A stretch of 64,000 nucleotides of DNA from an uncultured Gammaproteobacteria bacterium (GCA_964411255.1 CAYPKD010000002.1:162141-226140), one strand, 5' to 3'. Positions 8,893 to 51,456 are shown, counted from the stretch's first letter. Notes: generated from the sequence alone by a model not told the origin. Numbers and translations are program-made.

Positions 8893-9561
8893 GTGAAAAT
8901 ACAAGCATCATATTTAGATTCTAGGATCACTCATGGAATAAAAGTAAGATTAGACAAAGTTGACAATCAAGCGTTTGCTATTCCAGACGAGAATGGCCAG
9001 TATGTGGTCACTGCTGTGTATGAAGAAGATTTTGTCGTATTTGTTGATGAAATAGAAAGATTTAAAGATGTCTGGGGTGAAGACACTGAAGTCTCTATTA
9101 CCAATATAGATAATGATAGTACGGTTCCTGGTAATGATTGGGAAAAGAATCCTATTACTCAGCATGAAATTACAAATAATGGTCATGAAGAACGTGCTAG
9201 GATGCAAAATTTAGATGATGAACAAGATATTGATGAAAATTCAGAAAGAGTTAGTGGATTATTTTTAGCAGTGATGACTTTAGAATTTATACCAGAAAAA
9301 GCTAGAGTTAATATTCAGACATTTAACAATCAGCAGATTGCCTTGCCTGCAGATGATGGCGAGTATGTGGTTTATTCAAACCTAAAGAATGGTCGAGGAA
9401 TATTGGTTGCTCCATATAAAGATGAGAAAAGAATAAAAGAAAGGCAATTGGCTAATCGTTATCTTTTGGGAAGGCCTTGTGGAGCTGGCAGACAAAGTAA
9501 AGCTGATTTTATTTCATCTGAGCAATTAAATCGATTGAGAGATTTGAAAAAAGATAAATGA
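8893..9561 (+). CDS. tandem-paralog family protein 2
   Basis: GTG start after RBS AAGGAGGGAGAA. Motifs HEITNNGHEER and DDGEYVV. C-terminus parallels paralog 1 (RY..GR..G..R.DF.S.EQL). Confidence 0.65.
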   Translation: MKIQASYLDSRITHGIKVRLDKVDNQAFAIPDENGQYVVTAVYEEDFVVFVDEIERFKDVWGEDTEVSITNIDNDSTVPGNDWEKNPITQHEITNNGHEERARMQNLDDEQDIDENSERVSGLFLAVMTLEFIPEKARVNIQTFNNQQIALPADDGEYVVYSNLKNGRGILVAPYKDEKRIKERQLANRYLLGRPCGAGRQSKADFISSEQLNRLRDLKKDK

Positions 9562-9593
9562 TGCAAAACAGAAATAAAATTCAAACAAAAACA

Positions 9594-9620
9594 AAAACCT
9601 TCAGCACTTGGAGGTTTTTT
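9594..9620 (+). terminator. conserved terminator cassette copy 2
   Basis: ATTCAAACAAAAACAAAAACCTTCAGCACTTGGAGGTTTTTT. Confidence 0.65.
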
Positions 9621-9860
9621 AAAAAGCAAAAATCAAAAAGCTTGCCCTGAGCTATGTCGAAGGGTAAAAACTGTGGAGTCGCTTGGCGACCTTTTTTTAT
9701 TCAAACAGCTAAACCCCTAACCCAAACTCAAATTTGCTACAAGTTACATGATATAAGTCGTATGATAAACTGTTGACGAAATGTGGAATAAATTCGCTTA
9801 TTCAATTTATTATTTTATTGTATAATTAAAATTAGGAAATAAAAAAAGGAGAGGGCAGAG

Positions 9861-10502
9861 ATGAAAAAGACAAGAAAGCTTTTTTTGTGTTCATCGAAAA
9901 TTAAAATTCTACCAGGACAAATAGTAAAAGATGAGAATGGCTTTGCTATACCCATCGAAACTTCTAATTTTAAATCACTTAATGAAAACGATATGTATAG
10001 AGTGGTTGGTTATGACGGTGATTGTTCAGTAAAAGTTGTCTCAGTTGACGAAGAGGCCGATTGCTCGACACATAATCCGTGGTGTCATGAAGATACCAAT
10101 CCGCCAGTTCGCCAGCGTATAACTAAAGATCCGGATGAATTAAGGTTTATAAGAGATGAATTAAGAGAAAAACGTCAACCTCATGTTGAGACAAAAACAT
10201 ATTCCGCTCTTATTAAAGGCAATGTAAATGTAATCGAAGGCGATAGGGTCAACATAATTGACTTTGAAGGCATTAATGGAATTGTTATCGCTGTATTAGA
10301 TGCTCTGGGCGTTTATGAAGTGATAGAAGTTGTTCAACATATTAACAAGCCGCTAATTGCCAGGCTTGTAAAAATTCAAAAGTGGAATAAAGCGCAAAGA
10401 GGCGGTCAGTATCCTGATCAGCAAGATTTAAGGGTATCAGATACTTCTTGGGTTGATGATTTCTCAAATATCAAATTTGTCCTAGAAGAAAATGATGATT
10501 AA
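9861..10502 (+). CDS. tandem-paralog family protein 3 (diverged)
   Basis: Upstream TTGTATAAT -10 and RBS AAGGAGAGGG. Shares the ITKDPDE motif and the V-N-V-I-x-GD-x-V module with paralog 4. Confidence 0.6.
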   Translation: MKKTRKLFLCSSKIKILPGQIVKDENGFAIPIETSNFKSLNENDMYRVVGYDGDCSVKVVSVDEEADCSTHNPWCHEDTNPPVRQRITKDPDELRFIRDELREKRQPHVETKTYSALIKGNVNVIEGDRVNIIDFEGINGIVIAVLDALGVYEVIEVVQHINKPLIARLVKIQKWNKAQRGGQYPDQQDLRVSDTSWVDDFSNIKFVLEENDD

Positions 10503-10530
10503 AACAAAAACACAAATTCAAACAAAAACA

Positions 10531-10558
10531 AAAAATCTTCAGCAACTGGAGATTTTTT
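10531..10558 (+). terminator. conserved terminator cassette copy 3
   Basis: ATTCAAACAAAAACAAAAAATCTTCAGCAACTGGAGATTTTTTT. Confidence 0.65.
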
Positions 10559-10711
10559 TAATAGATTAAAGATCTCCGCCAAAGGCGGACGATTTTTTTT
10601 ATTATGTATTATATGGTACAAGCTATGAGCTCTCGTGTATCGTTTGGTTATCAAAATAATTTTTTTATTGTATAATATAAGAGTTGAAAACAAAAAAATA
10701 GGAGGGAGATC

Positions 10712-11260
10712 ATGCTAACAAAATTAAGATTTTGTAATGCAAAATTACAAATAGGCGTAGGAGATAAGGTAATAGACAGAGAGGGCTTAGCATTTCCTGT
10801 TTTGTCTGATTCGACTGAAGATAGCTTAGATGTATTAGAGGTTGTTGAAGTAAATCAAGAAAAACTGGAAGTTTTGACAAGGCCATTTACAAATTTAAAT
10901 GAAGATGCATGGGCTGAAATTTCTGGATCATATGAGATAAAAACAGATCCGGGAAATAATATTACAAAAGATCCAGCGATAGAGACAAAAGGTCATGAAG
11001 AATTTGAAGTATTGATGGCTGTAATTGATGGTGAAGTAAATGTAATCCAAGGTGATCCAGTAAGAATTGTCGGTTATCGAGCACAAGCCGGAATTGTTGA
11101 TGTGGTGCCACATCCTGAAGGAGAGTATGTTATTATTGAAATTATTGCTGAGATGTCTGTACCGCGAAAAGGCTTGTGGGTGCAAATTGAACCAGATTAT
11201 GATGATGACAATGATAATGATTTTGCAGAAAAAGTAAAAGTCAAAATTTATAATGCATGA
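10712..11260 (+). CDS. tandem-paralog family protein 4 (diverged)
   Basis: Upstream TTGTATAAT and RBS AGGAGGGAGA. Motifs NNITKDPAIETKGHEE and PEGEYVIIE. Confidence 0.6.
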   Translation: MLTKLRFCNAKLQIGVGDKVIDREGLAFPVLSDSTEDSLDVLEVVEVNQEKLEVLTRPFTNLNEDAWAEISGSYEIKTDPGNNITKDPAIETKGHEEFEVLMAVIDGEVNVIQGDPVRIVGYRAQAGIVDVVPHPEGEYVIIEIIAEMSVPRKGLWVQIEPDYDDDNDNDFAEKVKVKIYNA

Positions 11261-11417: not shown

Positions 11418-11573
11418 ATGGAAGAACAATTTGAAAGTCTGGAAATTAGAACGCCTTTAGACAGGGAAAATGACTTATTAAAGCATTTTGAAGGTGATCG
11501 AAAAACTGTTGCTGATACATTTAGATCAGCCAGTGATTTTTTATATAACAAATACAAAGAAAACAAACAATAA
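11418..11573 (+). CDS. hypothetical small protein (51 aa)
   Basis: ATG 8-10 nt after AAGGGAA. Encodes MEEQFESLEIRTPLDRENDLLKHFEGDRKTVADTFRSASDFLYNKYKENKQ. Its stop is 2 nt before the next ORF. Preferred over the low-complexity antisense ORF 11357..11566. Confidence 0.35.
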   Translation: MEEQFESLEIRTPLDRENDLLKHFEGDRKTVADTFRSASDFLYNKYKENKQ

Positions 11574-11575
11574 TT

Positions 11576-11854
11576 ATGGAATTGGCTCCAAAAGTTAAAA
11601 AATTAATTGATGAGTCAGATACTGATCAGCAAACAAAAGATTTAATGAATGAATTTTTCAAGTCAATCAGCGATGAGACTCATTATGTAAAAATAATTGA
11701 TCTGTTTGAAAGATTCCCAAGCCTTTTTGACAATTTTGTGGCTTGCTTTACTTTAAAGAAAGCATATTTTGAAAAAGGCGGAACTGAAAATGAATGGAAT
11801 GATATTTTAGCAAAGGAAGAAGATGCGCTGAATCAATTGAAAGTACAGGAATAA
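11576..11854 (+). CDS. hypothetical small acidic protein (92 aa)
   Basis: ORF apparently translationally coupled to the preceding small ORF. Confidence 0.45.
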   Translation: MELAPKVKKLIDESDTDQQTKDLMNEFFKSISDETHYVKIIDLFERFPSLFDNFVACFTLKKAYFEKGGTENEWNDILAKEEDALNQLKVQE

Positions 11855-11952
11855 TTTAGAATGTAGGCAGGAAGAAGTTTAATATAAGGGCATTATGCTC
11901 TTTTTTTGATATATATTTTATGTTTTATTATGGAGTTATCCACAGGGGATAT

Positions 11953-11980
11953 TGACTGTTCGTTTTTTGTTCGGTATAAT
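11953..11980 (+). promoter_or_regulatory. sigma70 promoter TTGACT-16-TATAAT of the lexA transcription unit
   Basis: TTGACT at 11953-11958 and TATAAT at 11975-11980. Confidence 0.6.
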
Positions 11981-12007
11981 GCCAATGAGAGTGTTCGGTA
12001 TTTGTTC
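11958..12007 (+). promoter_or_regulatory. two GTTC-N7-GTTC direct repeats (candidate LexA/SOS boxes)
   Basis: GTTCgttttttGTTC at 11958-11972 lies inside the promoter spacer. GTTCggtatttGTTC at 11993-12007 lies just downstream of the -10. The GTTC-N7-GTTC direct repeat is the described alphaproteobacterial-type SOS box. Confidence 0.4.
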
Positions 12008-12012
12008 GTAAT

Positions 12013-12478
12013 AAGCGAGATAAGCAAGACGAGCAAGAAAGCGAGACAAGTAATCCTTTAATATGGAAAATAAAAAAGAAATAAAAAGTTTTAAAGATAT
12101 TATTGTTTGGCAAAAAGCTCATCAATTGGTTCTGGAAATATATAAGATAACCAAGAATTTCCCAAGCGAAGAGCGATTTTGTTTGGTCAGTCAGATGAGA
12201 AGAGCGGTCATATCAGTAACTGCTAATATTGTTGAAGGTTTTGCCAGGAAAAAGATTTTAGAAAGTTTAAATTTTTATAATATTTCAAATGCTTCTTTAG
12301 AGGAATTAAAATATTTTATATTAATTTGTTATGATATTAATCTAATAACTAAAAATACTTATAGCAAACTATTTGAAATGAGCAAAGAGACAGGAAGGAC
12401 TTTACATGGTTGGATACAAAGTCAAAAAGTTAATGCCAACTTGTCTTGCTCGTTTCACTAGTCTTGCTTGTCTCGCTT
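12013..12478 (+). mobile_element. inverted-repeat-flanked cassette carrying a four-helix-bundle gene (MITE-like, putative)
   Basis: Left inverted repeat AAGCGAGATAAGCAAGACGAGCAAGAAAGCGAGACAAGT at 12013-12051. Right inverted repeat ACTTGTCTTGCTCGTTTCACTAGTCTTGCTTGTCTCGCTT at 12439-12478, which encodes the last 7 codons and the stop. The same repeat family recurs at 13307-13327 and as an apparently empty pair at 34994-35083. Confidence 0.35.
12063..12461 (+). CDS. four-helix-bundle protein (TIGR02436-like; 23S rRNA intervening-sequence protein family)
   Basis: WQKAHQLVLEIYKITKNFPSEERFCLVSQMRRAVISVTANIVEGFAR is typical of the family. Confidence 0.7.
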   Translation: MENKKEIKSFKDIIVWQKAHQLVLEIYKITKNFPSEERFCLVSQMRRAVISVTANIVEGFARKKILESLNFYNISNASLEELKYFILICYDINLITKNTYSKLFEMSKETGRTLHGWIQSQKVNANLSCSFH

Positions 12479-12485
12479 TAACCAT

Positions 12486-13091
12486 ATGGGAGAGCTTACA
12501 AAAAAACAATCAGAAATTTTACGCTTTATAAGTGATTATGTAAAAGAATATGATTATGCGCCAAGCTATCGGGAGATAGGGGATAATTTTAAGATTTCAT
12601 CTCCAGCTACCATTCATCAGCATATTCAAACATTAAAATCCAAAGGATTTTTAGATGTTGATGCGCAAAAAGCCAGATCTATTGAATTGACCAATAAAGT
12701 AATCAAGATGGGCAGAAGCATTGAATTGCCTTTAGTTGGTATGATTACTGCTGGACAGCCGATTGAAGCAATTGAACAAAATGAAACAATGGCCGTGCCT
12801 GCTGATTTAGTCAGAGATGAGAATTCATACATCTTAAAAGTAAAAGGAGAATCAATGATTGAAGAAGGTATTTTTAACGGTGATTTTGTGATTATTGAAA
12901 GAAACAATTATCCTCAGAATGGAGACGTAGTTGTCGCTTTATTAAATAATGCGTATGTCACTTTGAAAAAGTTTTATCGGGAAGCGACCCGCATTCGGCT
13001 GCAGCCTGCCAATTCATCTATGAAACCTATTTATTGCAAAGACGTGGCTATCAGAGGAATTGTAAAAGCTATTATTCGTAAATTTGTTTAA
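12486..13091 (+). CDS. lexA: LexA repressor (S24 peptidase)
   Basis: N-terminal wHTH, Ala-Gly cleavage site (ITAGQP), and catalytic Ser/Lys context VKGESM ... TLKKF. Alternative start at 12468 lies inside the repeat. Confidence 0.8.
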   Translation: MGELTKKQSEILRFISDYVKEYDYAPSYREIGDNFKISSPATIHQHIQTLKSKGFLDVDAQKARSIELTNKVIKMGRSIELPLVGMITAGQPIEAIEQNETMAVPADLVRDENSYILKVKGESMIEEGIFNGDFVIIERNNYPQNGDVVVALLNNAYVTLKKFYREATRIRLQPANSSMKPIYCKDVAIRGIVKAIIRKFV

Positions 13092-13338
13092 TACATAACA
13101 AGCATGGGCAGAAGAATGGGGAGGAGTAAATTAATTCATTTTAATTTCTCCCTCTCCTTGTTCTTCTGTTAACCCCAGCTTTTCTCAACCTTATGTCAAA
13201 AAGAAAAATAAAATCAATTTATCGGAAGGCTGTTGGATTTTGGAGAGATTTGACTATCAATGTTTAATTAGAGTAAGGCATGTAAAACAAGTGTGATATA
13301 TATATGGCGACTTGTCTTGCTTGTCGCATTATTTATTT

Positions 13339-13587
13339 ATGCATGAAGTAATAAATCAACCAATTGAAGTAATTGCTGCTTTTACGAGAAGTAAAATGAT
13401 TCCGTTATTTTTTAAATGGAAAAATCGTCGCTATAAAGTTAGGAAAATTAATCTTGTCCATTCAGTTCGAGAGGGCAGGAATAAAATATACTTTTTTTCA
13501 GTATCAGATGCAGTTAATTTTTTTAAGATTTGCTTTGATACTGAGAAAGGGACTTGGAAATTATTAGAACTATATTATGAAGGTTAA
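13339..13587 (+). CDS. hypothetical small protein upstream of Y-family polymerase (position analogous to YolD/UmuD-like accessory)
   Basis: ORF 13312..13587. ATG at 13339 (MHEVINQ) is the more plausible start because the upstream part is a repeat copy. The YolD analogy rests on position only. Confidence 0.35.
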   Translation: MHEVINQPIEVIAAFTRSKMIPLFFKWKNRRYKVRKINLVHSVREGRNKIYFFSVSDAVNFFKICFDTEKGTWKLLELYYEG

Positions 13588-13684
13588 AACAAAAATTTTT
13601 AAATCAAACGTTCACTTTTGGGCTGAGTTGCATGGTAAAGACTATATTTTTGATTTCGATACTGAAACATACATCCCCGCTTAG

Positions 13685-13708
13685 TTATATATAACCGGTT
13701 ATATATAA
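13685..13708. promoter_or_regulatory. 24-bp perfect palindrome TTATATATAACCGGTTATATATAA upstream of dinB
   Basis: Perfect dyad about 70 bp upstream of the dinB start. Candidate operator. Confidence 0.35.
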
Positions 13709-13776
13709 AATGTGAGACACGAAAGGCGAAAGGATTAATTTATATTTTTCCTTTCGCTTTTCTATTTTCTAATATT

Positions 13777-14985
13777 ATGAAAATAATTCTTCATATAGAC
13801 ATGAATTCGTATTTTGCTTCAGTTGAGCAGCAGGCCAATCCTTTTTTGCGTGGTAAGCCAATTGTGGTCAGCGGAAAAGAAGATTCCCGGACCGTTATTG
13901 TGGCTGCTTCGATCGAAGCTAAAAAATTTGGAATAAAAACAGCAATGAATGTTTTTGAAGCAAAAAAACTTTGCCCAAATTTATATTTTGTTCAGCCAGA
14001 TCCGCAAAAATACGCTCAGGTAACCAATTCTTTTTTTGAAATATTTAAAAGGTATAGCAGTGAGGTTGAGCTTTTTAGTATTGACGAGGCTTTTTTAGAT
14101 TTAACAAAATATGTAAAAAATTTTAATCAGGCACATATTGTTGCAAAAAAAATTAAGGAACAAATTAAAAATGAAATAGGAGAGAGGATTACTTGTTCTG
14201 TGGGCATTTCATTTAATCGTATTTTAGCAAAATTAGCTGCTAATATGAAAAAACCTGATGGTCTGGTGGTGATTGAAGAGAAAGATAAGTTAAAAGTGTT
14301 AGATTCAATAAAACCAAATGATTTATGCGGATTGGGCCCTCGTCTGGCAAAGAGGCTTAATAATTTAGGATTGGATACTTTAAGGAAAATCAGACAAGCA
14401 AATAAGCAAATAATGCTGGATGAATTTGGCCCGTATTGGGCTCCGAGATTGCAAAAAATGGCAGCTGGAGAATTAGATGAAACAATCACTCCGTATTATA
14501 AAGAAGAGCAGCTAAAGTCAGCAGGTGCTTCTTATACCTTGCCTCAAAATACTTATGATAAAAATTATCTTTATCAAATATTAATTCAGCTGGTTGAAAA
14601 AGTATGCCGTCGGCTGAGGAAAAATAATTTGAGCGCAAAAACAACCGCATATTTTTTGAGATTTGAGGATTTTACTCATTGGGGAGAAAGAAAAACCTGG
14701 ACTAATTATTTATATGATGAGGTAAATTTTTTTGAATGGGCAAAATCGCAAATTGAAAGATTAATTTTTCCCAAGGCTGTCAGATTAATTGGCTTTAGAG
14801 CAGGAAATGTGATTGAAAGTAATAATCAAATGCCTTTATTTATAAAAGAAAGGAAAAAATTTTTATTAATAAAATCCTTGGATAAAATCAATGATATTTA
14901 TGGTGAACGTACCATTTTTAGCGCAGCCATGCTGGATGTGCCCAAATTAAAAAGGCGCGCAGGAGGATTTAAATTTGAAATCTAA
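13777..14985 (+). CDS. dinB: DNA polymerase IV (Y-family, DinB/UmuC-like)
   Basis: N-terminus ILHIDMNSYFASVEQ and the palm motifs are typical of Y-family polymerases. Confidence 0.85.
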   Translation: MKIILHIDMNSYFASVEQQANPFLRGKPIVVSGKEDSRTVIVAASIEAKKFGIKTAMNVFEAKKLCPNLYFVQPDPQKYAQVTNSFFEIFKRYSSEVELFSIDEAFLDLTKYVKNFNQAHIVAKKIKEQIKNEIGERITCSVGISFNRILAKLAANMKKPDGLVVIEEKDKLKVLDSIKPNDLCGLGPRLAKRLNNLGLDTLRKIRQANKQIMLDEFGPYWAPRLQKMAAGELDETITPYYKEEQLKSAGASYTLPQNTYDKNYLYQILIQLVEKVCRRLRKNNLSAKTTAYFLRFEDFTHWGERKTWTNYLYDEVNFFEWAKSQIERLIFPKAVRLIGFRAGNVIESNNQMPLFIKERKKFLLIKSLDKINDIYGERTIFSAAMLDVPKLKRRAGGFKFEI

Positions 14986-14993
14986 AAAAGTAA

Positions 14994-15024
14994 AAGCCCG
15001 CATTGTGAAGCTACGGGCTTTGTC
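14994..15024 (+). terminator. terminator after dinB
   Basis: AAGCCCG-cattgtgaagcta-CGGGCTT followed by TGTCTTAT. Confidence 0.5.
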
Positions 15025-15587
15025 TTATGGGAGTAGGGTAAAGACCCTGAATTAGTGTCTCCGATAAGTGTTTGGACCAGGGTCGATTTGATTAGGTGTG
15101 ATAATGAGATGGGAAGGGATGTAGTTGAAATGACAGATGGATTGGTTGTGAAATTTGCTTTTCGAAGTTGAAGTATTAAAGTGAGCTGGACAGAAATTCC
15201 AAAAGCAAATGTAAGCGGGTGATTTATTGATTCGACCTGAGGTCTTTGACTTTATTTGAAAGAACAGATGTGCTGCTTGAAAGATTTATAAGGCCGGGTT
15301 TTGGTGGCTGTTTCTAGAGAGAAACGTTAAATTGCCACTTGGTCATTTGTTCTGTTTTTATTGAAGATCACAGAGCAAAGTATCCATTCGGTTTCTTGGT
15401 AGGCATTACTATTTAGCGTGCCCCCCTTAACCGTGTCAGGCCTTCATGTCTTTGTTTTAATTAGTTAGGCATTTTCAGCCAGCTAATTTGATTTAAGCTG
15501 CACACTACTTTATATCATATTTTTTTAAAAAAGTCAATACCTTTTAATGATTTTTCGCTATTTTTAGCTATTTTTTTCAAAACAAAA

Positions 15588-27996: not shown

Positions 27997-29541
27997 ATGT
28001 CCACTAAGAAAAATTTACCATTAATACTTTTAATCCTTGACGGCTGGGGCATTGCTCCCAAAAATAAAGGCAATGCAATAGAATTGGCTAAAAAGCCAAA
28101 TTTTGATTTTTTATTAAAAAAATATTCACATACCAGCTTATTTGCTCATGGCAGGCATGTGGGATTACCAGAAAATCAGGTAGGAAATTCAGAAGCAGGG
28201 CATTTAAATATTGGCGCTGGGCGTGTAGTAAAGCAGGATTCTGTTATTATATCAAAAGCGATTAAGGATGGGACATTTTATAAAAATACTGCTATCTTAG
28301 AACTGATAAAGCATGTAAATAAAAATAAATCAGATTTGCATCTGATGGGCTTAATATCACTTCATAATAGCCCTCACATGAGTTTGGAGCATTTATATGC
28401 TTTAACAAAAATGGCATGTAAACAATGTAAAAATATATATTTGCATCTTTTTACTGACGGACGTGACTCACCGCAATTTGCTGCTGCAGATATTTTAAGA
28501 CAGGTTCAGAAAAAATTACCTGAAAAAGTAAAAATTGTTTCTTTGGTTGGAAGATTTTATGCTATGGATAGAAATAAAAGATGGCAGAGAACCCAAACAG
28601 CTTATGAGCTTTTAATCAGCGGCAAAGGAGAAGTGTTCGAAGATTTTGATAAAGCAGTTTTGCATTCATATAACAAAGAATTAACCGATGAATTTTTGGA
28701 GCCGAGCTTAATTGTACCAAAAGGGAAAAAGCCTGTTTTAATAAAGGACAATGACGGTATTGTGTTTTTTAATTTACGATCTGACCGGGCCAGGCAATTA
28801 ACAAAATGTTTTGTCCAAAAAGATTTTAATAAAATAAATCCAAAGTCATTTAAGAGAAAAAAGAAATTAAAAAATTTAGCTTTTGTCGCATTGACTGATT
28901 TTGGCCCTGATTTAAATAATATTTTAACCGCCTATCCGAGCGTAACAGAAAAAAATACGATGCCAATTCTTTTACAGAATTTAAGGCAGGTGTATATTTC
29001 AGAAACCGAGAAGTATGCCCATGTGACATACTTTATCAATGGCGGTTCTGACAAGCCGGTTAATGGAGAAGATAGAATAAATATAGCTTCTCCTAATGTA
29101 AGAAGCTATGATTTAAAGCCTGAAATGAGTGCTTATAAGATCACTGATAAAATACTGGATTTATTATCAAAGAAAAGCTATGATTATTATGTGGTAAATT
29201 TAGCTAACCCAGATATGGTCGGTCATACAGGCAATCTTGAAGCTGGGATAAAGGCGATTGAGGCTACTGATAAATGTATTGGAGCAATTTATAAAAAGTT
29301 TTTAGCAGCTAAAGGCACTTGTATTATCACAGCTGATCATGGTAATGCAGAAAAAATGCTTGATTTAAAGACTGGTGAAAAATTTACTGAACACACAGTA
29401 AATAAAGTACCGTTTATTTTTGTTAATAGTAAAAATGTTAAATTGCGGTCTAATGGGCGTTTATCTCATATAATGTCAACAGTGCTTGATGTGATAAATC
29501 AAAAAAATCATAAAATTAGATCAAAGTCATTAATAAACTAG
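27997..29541 (+). CDS. gpmI: 2,3-bisphosphoglycerate-independent phosphoglycerate mutase (copy 1)
   Basis: LILDGWGIA and GNSEAGHLNIGAGR. 514 aa. Confidence 0.8.
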   Translation: MSTKKNLPLILLILDGWGIAPKNKGNAIELAKKPNFDFLLKKYSHTSLFAHGRHVGLPENQVGNSEAGHLNIGAGRVVKQDSVIISKAIKDGTFYKNTAILELIKHVNKNKSDLHLMGLISLHNSPHMSLEHLYALTKMACKQCKNIYLHLFTDGRDSPQFAAADILRQVQKKLPEKVKIVSLVGRFYAMDRNKRWQRTQTAYELLISGKGEVFEDFDKAVLHSYNKELTDEFLEPSLIVPKGKKPVLIKDNDGIVFFNLRSDRARQLTKCFVQKDFNKINPKSFKRKKKLKNLAFVALTDFGPDLNNILTAYPSVTEKNTMPILLQNLRQVYISETEKYAHVTYFINGGSDKPVNGEDRINIASPNVRSYDLKPEMSAYKITDKILDLLSKKSYDYYVVNLANPDMVGHTGNLEAGIKAIEATDKCIGAIYKKFLAAKGTCIITADHGNAEKMLDLKTGEKFTEHTVNKVPFIFVNSKNVKLRSNGRLSHIMSTVLDVINQKNHKIRSKSLIN

Positions 29542-29543
29542 TT

Positions 29544-31130
29544 ATGGCTCAACAAGTACCAAAACCTTTAACCCTTATTGTTTTAGACGGCTGGGGAGTG
29601 GCTCCTCCATCTGATGGCAATGCCATTTCATTGGCTAACACTCCAAATATTGACCGGTTTATCGCTAATTATCCGGCAATGACAATTTTAACTTCAGGTG
29701 AATCTGTTGGATTATCTGAAAATGAACCGGGTAATTCAGAGGTTGGACATCTAACAATGGGTATAGGCAGGGTTTTCTATCAAAATTTGCCCAGAGTGAA
29801 CCGTGCAATAAAGAACGGAGATTTTTTTAATAATCAGGCTTTTTTTAAAGCGGTAAATCATGTAAAAGTGAACAAATCTAAACTGCATTTGATAGGGATT
29901 TTAAGCGATGGAAATATTCAAGGGTCAATAGATCATTTATACGCCTTGCTTGAATTGGCCAGACAACAAAAGGTAAGCGAGGTATACATTCATGTTATTT
30001 TGGACGGACTTGACTCTTTAGAAAGTGGTGGAAAAGATTTTATAAATGATTTGGAAAAAAAGATTCATGAAACAGGAGTTGGTGAAATCGCATCAATATC
30101 AGGCAGATTTTTTGCATTAGATAGAGACGGTCATTGGGACAGAACCCAAAAAGCTTTTTATGCAATTGTACACGGACAGGCAGATGAATTTTATGATAAT
30201 CCGGCTGAAGCGATTGAATCTTCTTATAAAAAACAGATTTTTGATCAGGGGTTTCGGCCAGTTGTTATTACCAAAGGCGGTAAGCCAAAAACTACAGTTA
30301 CTGAAAAAGACGCTATAATTTTTTATAATATAAAAGGCGACCGTGCCAGTCAGCTTACAAAATCCTTTGTGCTGGATGAATTTTTAAAATTTGAAAGAGG
30401 ACCTAAAATTGCAAATTTGGTTTTTGTCACTATGACTCAATATGAAAAAGATTTACCAGTGGATGTTGCTTTCCCAAAGCAAATTGTTAAGACTTCATTA
30501 ACAAAAGCAATTAGCGATAACGGCCTTAAGCAGCTTTACATCGCTGAAACTGAAAAATATGCCCATGTTACTTTTTTCTTAAGTGGTAATACTGAGGAGC
30601 CGTTTATTGGCGAGGATAGAGTGGTAATACCGTCTCCTCAGATTGATTCTTATGTGCAAAAGCCAGAAATGAGCGCATTGGAAATTAGTAAACGGCTTGA
30701 AAAGGAAATTCTAAGGGAAGTATATGATTTTATTGTGTGCAATTTAGCCAATGCTGACATGCTTGGCCATACAGGGGATATTGAAGCGACGAAAAAGGCT
30801 ATTGAAACAGTGGATAAAGTAATTGGCACTATTGTGAATTTGGTTTTATCAAAGGATGGTGCGGTAGTATTGGTCGGTGACCATGGTAATGCTGAGGAAA
30901 TGAGAGATTTACAAACAGGAGAAATAAATAAAGAGCATACAAAAAATCCAGTTCCCTTTATAATTATTGGCAAAGAGTGGGAAGGAAAAAACATAGGAGT
31001 ATCTGAAAGCATTGGAAATGACTTAAGCTTGATAAAACCGGTTGGAATTTTAGCAGATGTAGCGCCAACAATATTGAAAATTTTAAATTTACCCGTTCCA
31101 GAGGAAATGACAGGTAAATCATTGATTTAA
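29544..31130 (+). CDS. 2,3-bisphosphoglycerate-independent phosphoglycerate mutase paralog (copy 2)
   Basis: LIVLDGWGVAP and GNSEVGHLTMGIGR. 528 aa. A tandem paralog of the preceding gene. Confidence 0.75.
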   Translation: MAQQVPKPLTLIVLDGWGVAPPSDGNAISLANTPNIDRFIANYPAMTILTSGESVGLSENEPGNSEVGHLTMGIGRVFYQNLPRVNRAIKNGDFFNNQAFFKAVNHVKVNKSKLHLIGILSDGNIQGSIDHLYALLELARQQKVSEVYIHVILDGLDSLESGGKDFINDLEKKIHETGVGEIASISGRFFALDRDGHWDRTQKAFYAIVHGQADEFYDNPAEAIESSYKKQIFDQGFRPVVITKGGKPKTTVTEKDAIIFYNIKGDRASQLTKSFVLDEFLKFERGPKIANLVFVTMTQYEKDLPVDVAFPKQIVKTSLTKAISDNGLKQLYIAETEKYAHVTFFLSGNTEEPFIGEDRVVIPSPQIDSYVQKPEMSALEISKRLEKEILREVYDFIVCNLANADMLGHTGDIEATKKAIETVDKVIGTIVNLVLSKDGAVVLVGDHGNAEEMRDLQTGEINKEHTKNPVPFIIIGKEWEGKNIGVSESIGNDLSLIKPVGILADVAPTILKILNLPVPEEMTGKSLI

Positions 31131-51147: not shown

Positions 51148-51456
51148 TTGTGGATAAAATTTATTTTTTTAAAAAACAATCGAATGGAAAAAACAAAAAA
51201 ACAAAAACCATGGGTTAGCTCTCTGAGCCTAGCGTTTCAATTGGGCTATACTATTGCAATTCCATTAGTAGTATTAGCTTTATTGGGCAGATTTTTAGAT
51301 AAAAAGTTTGATACGTCTCCATGGCTACTTTTAGCTGGAATATTGCTTTCTTTAATGATCACCAGCTGGATGATTTATATAAAAATTTCAAAAATAATAG
51401 CAGATTTAGGTAAGTGTGAAAAAAAAGTAGACAAGTTGAAAGAGGGGGAAAAATAG
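51148..51456 (+). CDS. ATP synthase protein I / AtpZ-like small membrane protein
   Basis: Two TM helices directly upstream of atpB. The start may be the internal Met at 51184. Confidence 0.45.
   Translation: MWIKFIFLKNNRMEKTKKQKPWVSSLSLAFQLGYTIAIPLVVLALLGRFLDKKFDTSPWLLLAGILLSLMITSWMIYIKISKIIADLGKCEKKVDKLKEGEK

Follow-up and report, generated by a model that had tools for sequence, protein, structure and literature searches.

Organization of the lexA-dinB locus

The window, which is the whole 64,000-nt stretch of DNA analysed here, carries a four-helix-bundle gene, lexA, a conserved 82-aa ORF and dinB in the same orientation, and these are preceded by a promoter on which two GTTC-N7-GTTC direct repeats were observed (Table 1). 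The gene upstream of this promoter (11576-11854) is closed off by a terminator-like hairpin and the transcription unit therefore begins at the lexA promoter, with the four-helix-bundle gene as its first gene. Neither an operator-like site, as judged by the weight matrix described below, nor a terminator-like site was found in the interval between lexA and dinB. The simplest reading is that lexA and dinB are co-transcribed, and the transcript would also include the four-helix-bundle gene and the 82-aa ORF. A search of 11500-15200 for known RNA families found none at E-values up to 0.1.

Table 1. Features of the lexA-dinB locus, in coordinates of the window.
Feature	Position	Strand	Remarks
Terminator-like hairpin, followed by a T run	11886-11902	+	
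TTATCCACA, exact DnaA-box consensus	11936-11944	+	7 nt upstream of the -35; bound protein putative
-35 hexamer TTGACT	11952-11957	+	sequence reading and promoter search
Operator 1, GTTCgttttttGTTC (= GTTCGTTTTTTGTTC)	11958-11972	+	within the -35/-10 spacer
-10 hexamer TATAAT	11975-11980	+	sequence reading and promoter search
Operator 2, GTTCggtatttGTTC (= GTTCGGTATTTGTTC)	11993-12007	+	begins 12 nt downstream of the -10
Left arm of the inverted repeat bracketing the four-helix-bundle gene	12013-12053	+	
Four-helix-bundle protein (23S rRNA intervening-sequence protein / bAvd-like), 132 aa	12063-12461	+	PF05635, 119 bits; TIGR02436
Right arm of the inverted repeat	12439-12479	+	overlaps the 3' end of the four-helix-bundle ORF
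lexA, 201 aa from ATG at 12486	12486-13091	+	LexA_DNA_bind and Peptidase_S24
82-aa ORF, conserved	13339-13587	+	between lexA and dinB
dinB (DNA polymerase IV, Y family), 402 aa	13777-14985	+	IMS domain, 173 bits

The LexA protein of the window matches PF01726 (71 bits), PF00717 (105 bits) and TIGR00498 (193 bits against a cut-off of 111). Its ITAGQP, GESM and TLKK segments align with VAAGEP, GMSM and TVKR of E. coli LexA (1JHH, 3JSO), and in this alignment the Ala-Gly cleavage site and the catalytic Ser/Lys dyad are retained. Of the 39 related genome loci, 16 have the 82-aa ORF directly 3' of lexA, as do the three close relatives without exception, and it also precedes dinB in L086 and L189. 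All six of its homologues that were tested gave weak, sub-threshold matches to DUF6504 (E from 7e-4 to 0.05), and the ORF may specify a so far uncharacterised accessory protein of the SOS response or of translesion synthesis.

Inverted-repeat arms of about 40 nt each flank the four-helix-bundle gene and close a long-range stem, with a z-score of -4.1, in the predicted leader RNA. The arrangement is that of a 23S rRNA intervening sequence, inserted here in the lexA leader. The gene was observed to be present in L081, L083, L001, L023, L089, L134, L173 and L187 and absent from L082, whose LexA is 90% identical to that of the window. Long inverted repeats are also apparent, by eye only, in leaders that have no such gene (L082, L010, L021 and L024).

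Promoter and putative operator anatomy

The TTGACT/TATAAT pair is the top sigma-70-like match in 11500-15500, with 11 of 12 positions matched. The original prediction had read both hexamers, and the repeat between them, correctly from the sequence; its 16-nt spacer is in fact 17 nt and its start at 11953 falls one base inside the -35. Its placing of the second repeat 12 nt downstream of the -10 was borne out, as was the lexA-dinB unit in front of which it located the repeats, given the TIGR00498 score and the Pol IV gene downstream. Operator 1 occupies the spacer and touches both hexamers. If transcription starts near 11987, as the promoter would suggest, operator 1 lies at about -29 to -15 and operator 2, covering about +7 to +21, falls in the initially transcribed region. 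Both operators are thus located on lexA's own promoter, which is where lexA autoregulation would place an SOS box.

Both repeats lengthen to TGTTCG-N6-GTTCG, so that the half-sites can be described as GTTCG arranged head-to-tail, 11 bp apart and separated by a T-rich spacer. Together with their flanks, the two operators form a 26-nt direct repeat that is 81% identical, with the copies 35 nt apart. A search of both strands of the window gave no further exact GTTC-N7-GTTC match. The count expected by chance is 0.77 and at least two matches were obtained in 17 of 100 shuffles, so the count of two is not significant by itself. The chance that two random matches would fall on the same strand less than 50 nt apart is about 0.001, and both repeats sit on the strongest promoter ahead of lexA. 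The Gram-positive palindrome GAAC-N4-GTTC has 0 matches in the window.

The matrix windows of operators 1 and 2 (11956-11976 and 11991-12011) score 28.0 and 22.1 bits respectively. The third-best site in the window scores 16.4 bits and lies within the Met-tRNA synthetase ORF, while the best score over 50 shuffled windows was 20.6 bits, which operator 2 barely tops.

Lineage of the window

The nearest LexA proteins (100% to 65% identity) belong to MAGs named Patescibacteria, Parcubacteria, Kuenenbacteria and Falkowbacteria, and Uhrbacteria also occur by name among the nearest LexA loci. The window has a GC content of 34% and a steady positive GC skew. The window derives from a CPR/Patescibacteria genome.

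Two other regions of the window were noted. Tandem full-length genes for cofactor-independent phosphoglycerate mutase (iPGM_N and Metalloenzyme domains) occupy 27997-29541 and 29544-31130, downstream of probable PGK and enolase genes, whose assignment rests on synteny with L081-L083. A run of three ORFs (222, 213 and 182 aa; 8893-11260) immediately before the lexA operon encodes proteins of similar acidic, repetitive composition and is also found in L081; no Pfam match was obtained for those of 213 and 182 aa.

Conservation of the putative operator in related lexA promoters

A set of 80 LexA loci was drawn from a one-genome-per-species collection, in which L001-L039 represent Parcubacteria-type relatives of the window. 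An exact GTTC-N7-GTTC in the orientation of lexA was found within 600 nt upstream of the gene in 21 of these 39 related loci. A 21-nt weight matrix with the consensus ACGTTCGGTTTTTGTTCGGTA was built and refined on the related lexA upstream regions. The matrix was seeded with GTTC-N7-GTTC matches and its fine details are therefore partly circular, which does not apply to the clustering of positions or to the exact-pattern scans. Sites of at least 15 bits were observed within 540 nt upstream of lexA in 36 of the 39 related loci, and the rest of the 414 kb, both strands counted, holds just five sites that reach this score.

The context of the site is near-invariant in the related lexA promoters and reads TTGAC, 1-2 nt, GTTCG-N6-GTTCGG, TATAAT. 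Operator and promoter appear from these alignments to be a single fused unit. The related loci range from 31% to 62% in GC and have unrelated flanks, so this conservation does not come from recent shared ancestry of the whole region. Both operators are kept in the three close relatives L081, L082 and L083, whose LexA proteins are 93%, 90% and 75% identical to that of the window, while the flanks diverge. These three loci retain the unit of lexA, the 82-aa ORF and dinB, with or without the four-helix-bundle gene.

The GAAC-N4-GTTC palindrome was found upstream of none of the 39 related lexA genes. Paired copies of it were recovered in the same data set ahead of Actinomycetota lexA (L057, L062 and L065), which served as a positive control. 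The original prediction was right both in recognizing a direct repeat with the alphaproteobacterial-type core and in setting it apart from the Gram-positive palindrome.

In four loci of another Patescibacteria clade (L009, L013, L016 and L034) the lexA operator was observed to read GTTCTATNTTTGTTCTATATG. In these loci the second half-site extends into the start codon of lexA and a -10-like TATATT is located in the operator spacer, which suggests that their lexA mRNA is leaderless.

Association with DNA-damage genes

No recA, uvrA, ruvAB or nrd gene was found in the 64-kb window, where the regulon can be checked for the lexA operon only. In related loci with a separately transcribed dinB (L008, L011 and L067), dinB has its own site directly upstream. 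A GTTC-N7-GTTC at +1882 in L031 lies inside dinB and was not counted.

A metagenome collection was scanned for the exact operator GTTCGNTTTTTGTTCGGTA, which gave 118 matches. Forty-four of these have a gene of the lexA operon immediately behind them, be it lexA itself, the four-helix-bundle gene, the 82-aa ORF or dinB. Genes found behind other matches, which usually have a TTGA-like -35 close by on their upstream side, include the error-prone polymerase DnaE2 (1065 bits to NF004225), six ImuA-like ORFs (three recognized by weak profile matches and three by sequence resemblance only), RadA, RadC, the PA0069 radical-SAM protein, a RecN-like SMC protein, three HNH endonucleases and an integrase. 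Two matches are located about 190-240 nt upstream of recA and are oriented away from it, so that recA is not the gene downstream of these sites as oriented. In L139, the inverted operator lies between a -35 and a -10 on the recA strand. Many of the remaining matches are on contigs too short to reveal the downstream gene. Some of the contigs that lack lexA are GC-rich and may not be of Patescibacteria. These matches show the element to mark SOS genes wherever it is used, which is not to say that each such gene is under its control in the window's own genome. The motif expected at other SOS promoters is thus present ahead of dinB and of metagenome DNA-damage genes, at loci other than the window, and together with the 36 of 39 related promoters this supports the view that LexA of this lineage uses a direct-repeat operator.

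Taking all 118 matches as sites was rejected, as 14 of them are inside long ORFs and were set aside as coding coincidences. Seven of these 14 fall in the last 120-150 or so codons of an ORF that is open for 400-860 codons upstream. An exact operator 19-mer in antisense, about 120-150 codons before the ORF end, was observed in L091, L127, L130, L160, L162 and L195. The carriers of this 19-mer probably form one conserved protein family, in which its occurrence is presumably a coding coincidence.

The distribution of the element bears on whether the repeats could have arisen by chance in a T-rich spacer and leader and be bound by no protein of their own. The low GC content of the window and the 17 shuffles in 100 that also reached two matches would allow this, but both matches are less than 50 nt apart on the lexA promoter, the element occupies the matching place in 36 of 39 related genomes whose GC spans 31% to 62%, and 44 of 118 exact metagenome matches precede genes of the lexA operon. 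Nor can the promoters readily be taken as recent copies of one another, since their flanks are divergent. We regard an origin by chance as extremely improbable.

The second putative operator

A second site within 70 nt downstream of the primary one was found in 19 of the 72 lexA promoters that have a primary site. None of the 12 promoters in the window's sub-clade lacks it; its distance from the first site is +31 to +36 there and its scores run from 17 to 26.5 bits. The orientation of this site was observed to be variable: it is the same as that of the first site in five promoters (the window, L082, L089, L134 and L023) and inverted in seven (L081, L083, L095, L100, L102, L108 and L001). An inverted second site at +24/+25 was also found in an Uhrbacteria-like clade. 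The inverted sites keep the T-rich spacer relative to their own orientation (e.g. GTTCGCTTTTTGTTCG), and the T tract is therefore part of the operator and not of the promoter spacer. The conserved position and free orientation argue that the second site is functional and that its orientation relative to the promoter is immaterial.

We noticed that the asymmetric 21-bp site has been flipped in place even with respect to the genome whose LexA is 93% identical (L081). The second sites compared are 11991-12011 in the window, 4709-4729 in L081, 9411-9431 in L083 and 9810-9830 in L082.

Operator 1 alone might be functional, with operator 2 a decaying local duplication that carries no regulatory weight. 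The 26-nt direct repeat formed by the sites and their flanks would fit such an origin, as would the lower score of operator 2 and the scarcity of second sites in the wider group (19 of 72). A passive duplicate does not explain why a site is kept even when it is inverted, nor does it account for its presence at +31 to +36 in 12 of 12 sub-clade promoters or for the inverted site retained in another clade. We therefore consider a decaying duplicate unlikely, though it deserves more weight than an origin by chance. The contribution of operator 2 is less certain than that of operator 1 because its score is near the best shuffled one and its orientation varies among close relatives.

LexA protein and operator type

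The N-terminal domains of LexA were aligned for the window, two other Patescibacteria, Actinomycetota, Acidobacteriota, Rhodobacterales, E. coli and Thermotoga. Identity to the window LexA is 46-47% for the other Patescibacteria, 41-43% for Acidobacteriota, 39% for Actinomycetota, 33-35% for the alphaproteobacterial Rhodobacterales, 29% for Thermotoga and 26% for E. coli. Helix 3 reads SSPATIHQH in the window, SSSSTVHSH in Actinomycetota, SSLATVHKH in Acidobacteriota and SKSGIHRLI in the alpha type. The recognition helix therefore resembles the Gram-positive/Acidobacteria type more closely than the alphaproteobacterial one, and the comparison with alphaproteobacterial LexA that had been proposed for this protein went against an alpha assignment.

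GTTCG is the half-site of the Gram-positive LexA box, for which the B. subtilis consensus is CGAACATATGTTCG. Base recognition kept with a changed half-site geometry appears to be the most economical reading. The window thus looks like a case of an alpha-like operator with a LexA that does not belong to the alpha clade, as far as the N-terminal domains that were compared can tell.

The core and spacing of GTTC-N7-GTTC are identical to those of the alphaproteobacterial box and could instead reflect a laterally acquired LexA of alphaproteobacterial type. A transfer of such a kind has been proposed for Acidobacterium. The N-terminal identities rank Rhodobacterales below both Actinomycetota and Acidobacteriota, and helix 3 is like that of the latter two and unlike SKSGIHRLI; this comparison is one of N-terminal domains. 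Lateral acquisition of an alpha-type LexA is improbable on these grounds.

The element might also be the operator of a regulator other than LexA, such as the four-helix-bundle protein, whose gene leads the unit in the window, or a clade-specific factor, since the link between element and LexA is drawn from sequence. The four-helix-bundle gene is missing from most element-bearing loci, including L082 with its closely similar LexA, and the genes behind the element constitute a textbook LexA regulon. In addition, both the GTTCG half-site and the recognition helix are of the Gram-positive LexA type. A regulator other than LexA is thus very improbable, and LexA remains the preferred binding protein.

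A weaker TTCG-N7-TTCG-like direct repeat (e.g. ACGTTCGCTTTCTTTTCGCCT) was observed 35-130 nt upstream of Acidobacteriota/Gemmatimonadota lexA (L043, L050, L064, L069, L075-L077 and L080). The direct-repeat mode may reach past Patescibacteria to the LexA clades that are most similar to theirs.

Proposed mode of regulation

We consider it about 90% probable that LexA of this Patescibacteria bacterium uses both GTTC-N7-GTTC elements as its operators (SOS boxes). Each element would be bound by one LexA dimer on its head-to-tail GTTCG pair, with the 11 bp between half-sites corresponding to one helical turn. Half-sites at this distance would be on the same face of the helix, and one DNA-binding domain would have to turn relative to the two-fold axis of the dimer. 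Such a turn is conceivable, given the flexible linker that structures of E. coli LexA display.

LexA on operator 1, in the -35/-10 spacer, would keep RNA polymerase off the promoter, while operator 2 may provide an added block to open-complex formation or promoter escape. Operators that exclude RNA polymerase from such positions are the classical arrangement of lexA autoregulation. Upon DNA damage, RecA-stimulated self-cleavage of LexA would free the promoter, the four-helix-bundle gene, lexA, the 82-aa ORF and dinB would be transcribed, and newly made LexA would then restore repression.

A DnaA-box consensus at lexA promoters

The exact DnaA-box consensus TTATCCACA upstream of the -35 is one of two exact copies in the window. 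The other (51149-51157, minus strand) follows a TTGACC-17-TAAAAT promoter at a distance of about 20 nt; a small uncalled ORF comes immediately after this copy, and the gene for ATP synthase subunit a lies about 380 nt downstream of it. The consensus was found to be associated with lexA: an exact copy occurs within -120 to +140 of the primary operator in 57 of 81 Parcubacteria-type lexA promoters (L001-L039, L081-L083 and the LexA-linked metagenome loci), and 59 of the 74 exact copies in 737 kb of these loci fall within this interval. Relative to the first base of the 21-nt operator window, most copies have a fixed offset of -19 to -22, or about 16-19 nt before the first GTTC, and some lie in inverted orientation at +45 to +49, a short way past the -10.

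Even with one mismatch allowed, TTATCCACA is absent from 25 of 26 non-lexA promoters that have the same operator, and none of the 41 LexA loci of other lineages has it. A role as a general element of SOS promoters was rejected on the former count. A role as a general promoter element was likewise rejected, since one-mismatch matches in the window are at the level of chance (19 against 20.9 expected). A dnaA gene was sought among the retrieved loci for oriC box clusters and none was found.

The Parcubacteria-type lexA promoter can tentatively be viewed as a composite of a DnaA box and a LexA operator, in which DnaA would set the level of lexA and so couple the SOS set-point to replication initiation. 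We hold this to be possible at somewhat less than even odds; the 9-mer is a match to the consensus and may not be the box of these organisms. No report of a DnaA box at CPR lexA promoters was found in the searchable literature, a scope that leaves out the text of the 2017 Patescibacteria SOS study. The only precedent found is the control of E. coli uvrB, recN and dinJ by DnaA and LexA (PMC6015884). A DnaA box lies beside a LexA box in one promoter there as here, but dual control in E. coli concerns SOS target genes, whereas here it would involve lexA, with a box that keeps a constant spacing to the -35. If real and unreported, a lexA-specific DnaA box would constitute a novel regulatory input into the SOS system of organisms with very few transcription factors.

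Relation to known LexA operators

The alphaproteobacterial SOS box of Rhodobacter, Rhizobium and Caulobacter has an identical core of two direct GTTC, 11 bp centre to centre. The half-site in the window is longer (GTTCG) and the T-rich spacer is conserved, and the LexA of the window differs in its DNA-binding domain (33-35% identity) and in helix 3. The Gram-positive Cheo box CGAAC-N4-GTTCG of Bacillus and Actinomycetota has the GTTCG half-site in common with the operators described here, is read by a similar recognition helix (SS-x-[AS]-T-[VI]-H-x-H) and likewise overlaps the lexA promoter. Its half-sites are inverted at 8 bp, whereas those of the window are head-to-tail at 11 bp. A direct repeat with a T-rich centre is also known from Balneolaeota, where the motif TTACACATATTTTWTACATA controls lexA, recA and translesion polymerases (PMC7739468); the half-site is TACA there and GTTCG here, and the phylum is unrelated.

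The SOS network of Patescibacteria was analysed by Sanchez-Osuna, Barbe and Erill (Environ Microbiol 2017;19:3465), and a later paper from the same laboratory cites that study as a case of a LexA that evolved toward a direct repeat. The superphylum, the regulator and the direct-repeat operator are common to that system and to the window. The regulon recovered here is centred on lexA and translesion polymerases. The LexA motif of Patescibacteria was reportedly validated by gel shift. As a direct-repeat LexA motif in this group dates from 2017, the operators of the window are of an already known type, here correctly rediscovered in a genome that is new.

The value of recognizing the SOS operator of an uncultivated CPR bacterium from sequence alone is therefore mainly confirmatory. 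The comparative data sharpen the description of the operator, which comprises GTTCG half-sites one turn apart, a T-rich spacer, fused promoter hexamers and, in one sub-clade, a second site of free orientation. Furthermore, they support the idea that a LexA may exchange inverted half-sites for direct ones and still keep a Gram-positive-like recognition helix.
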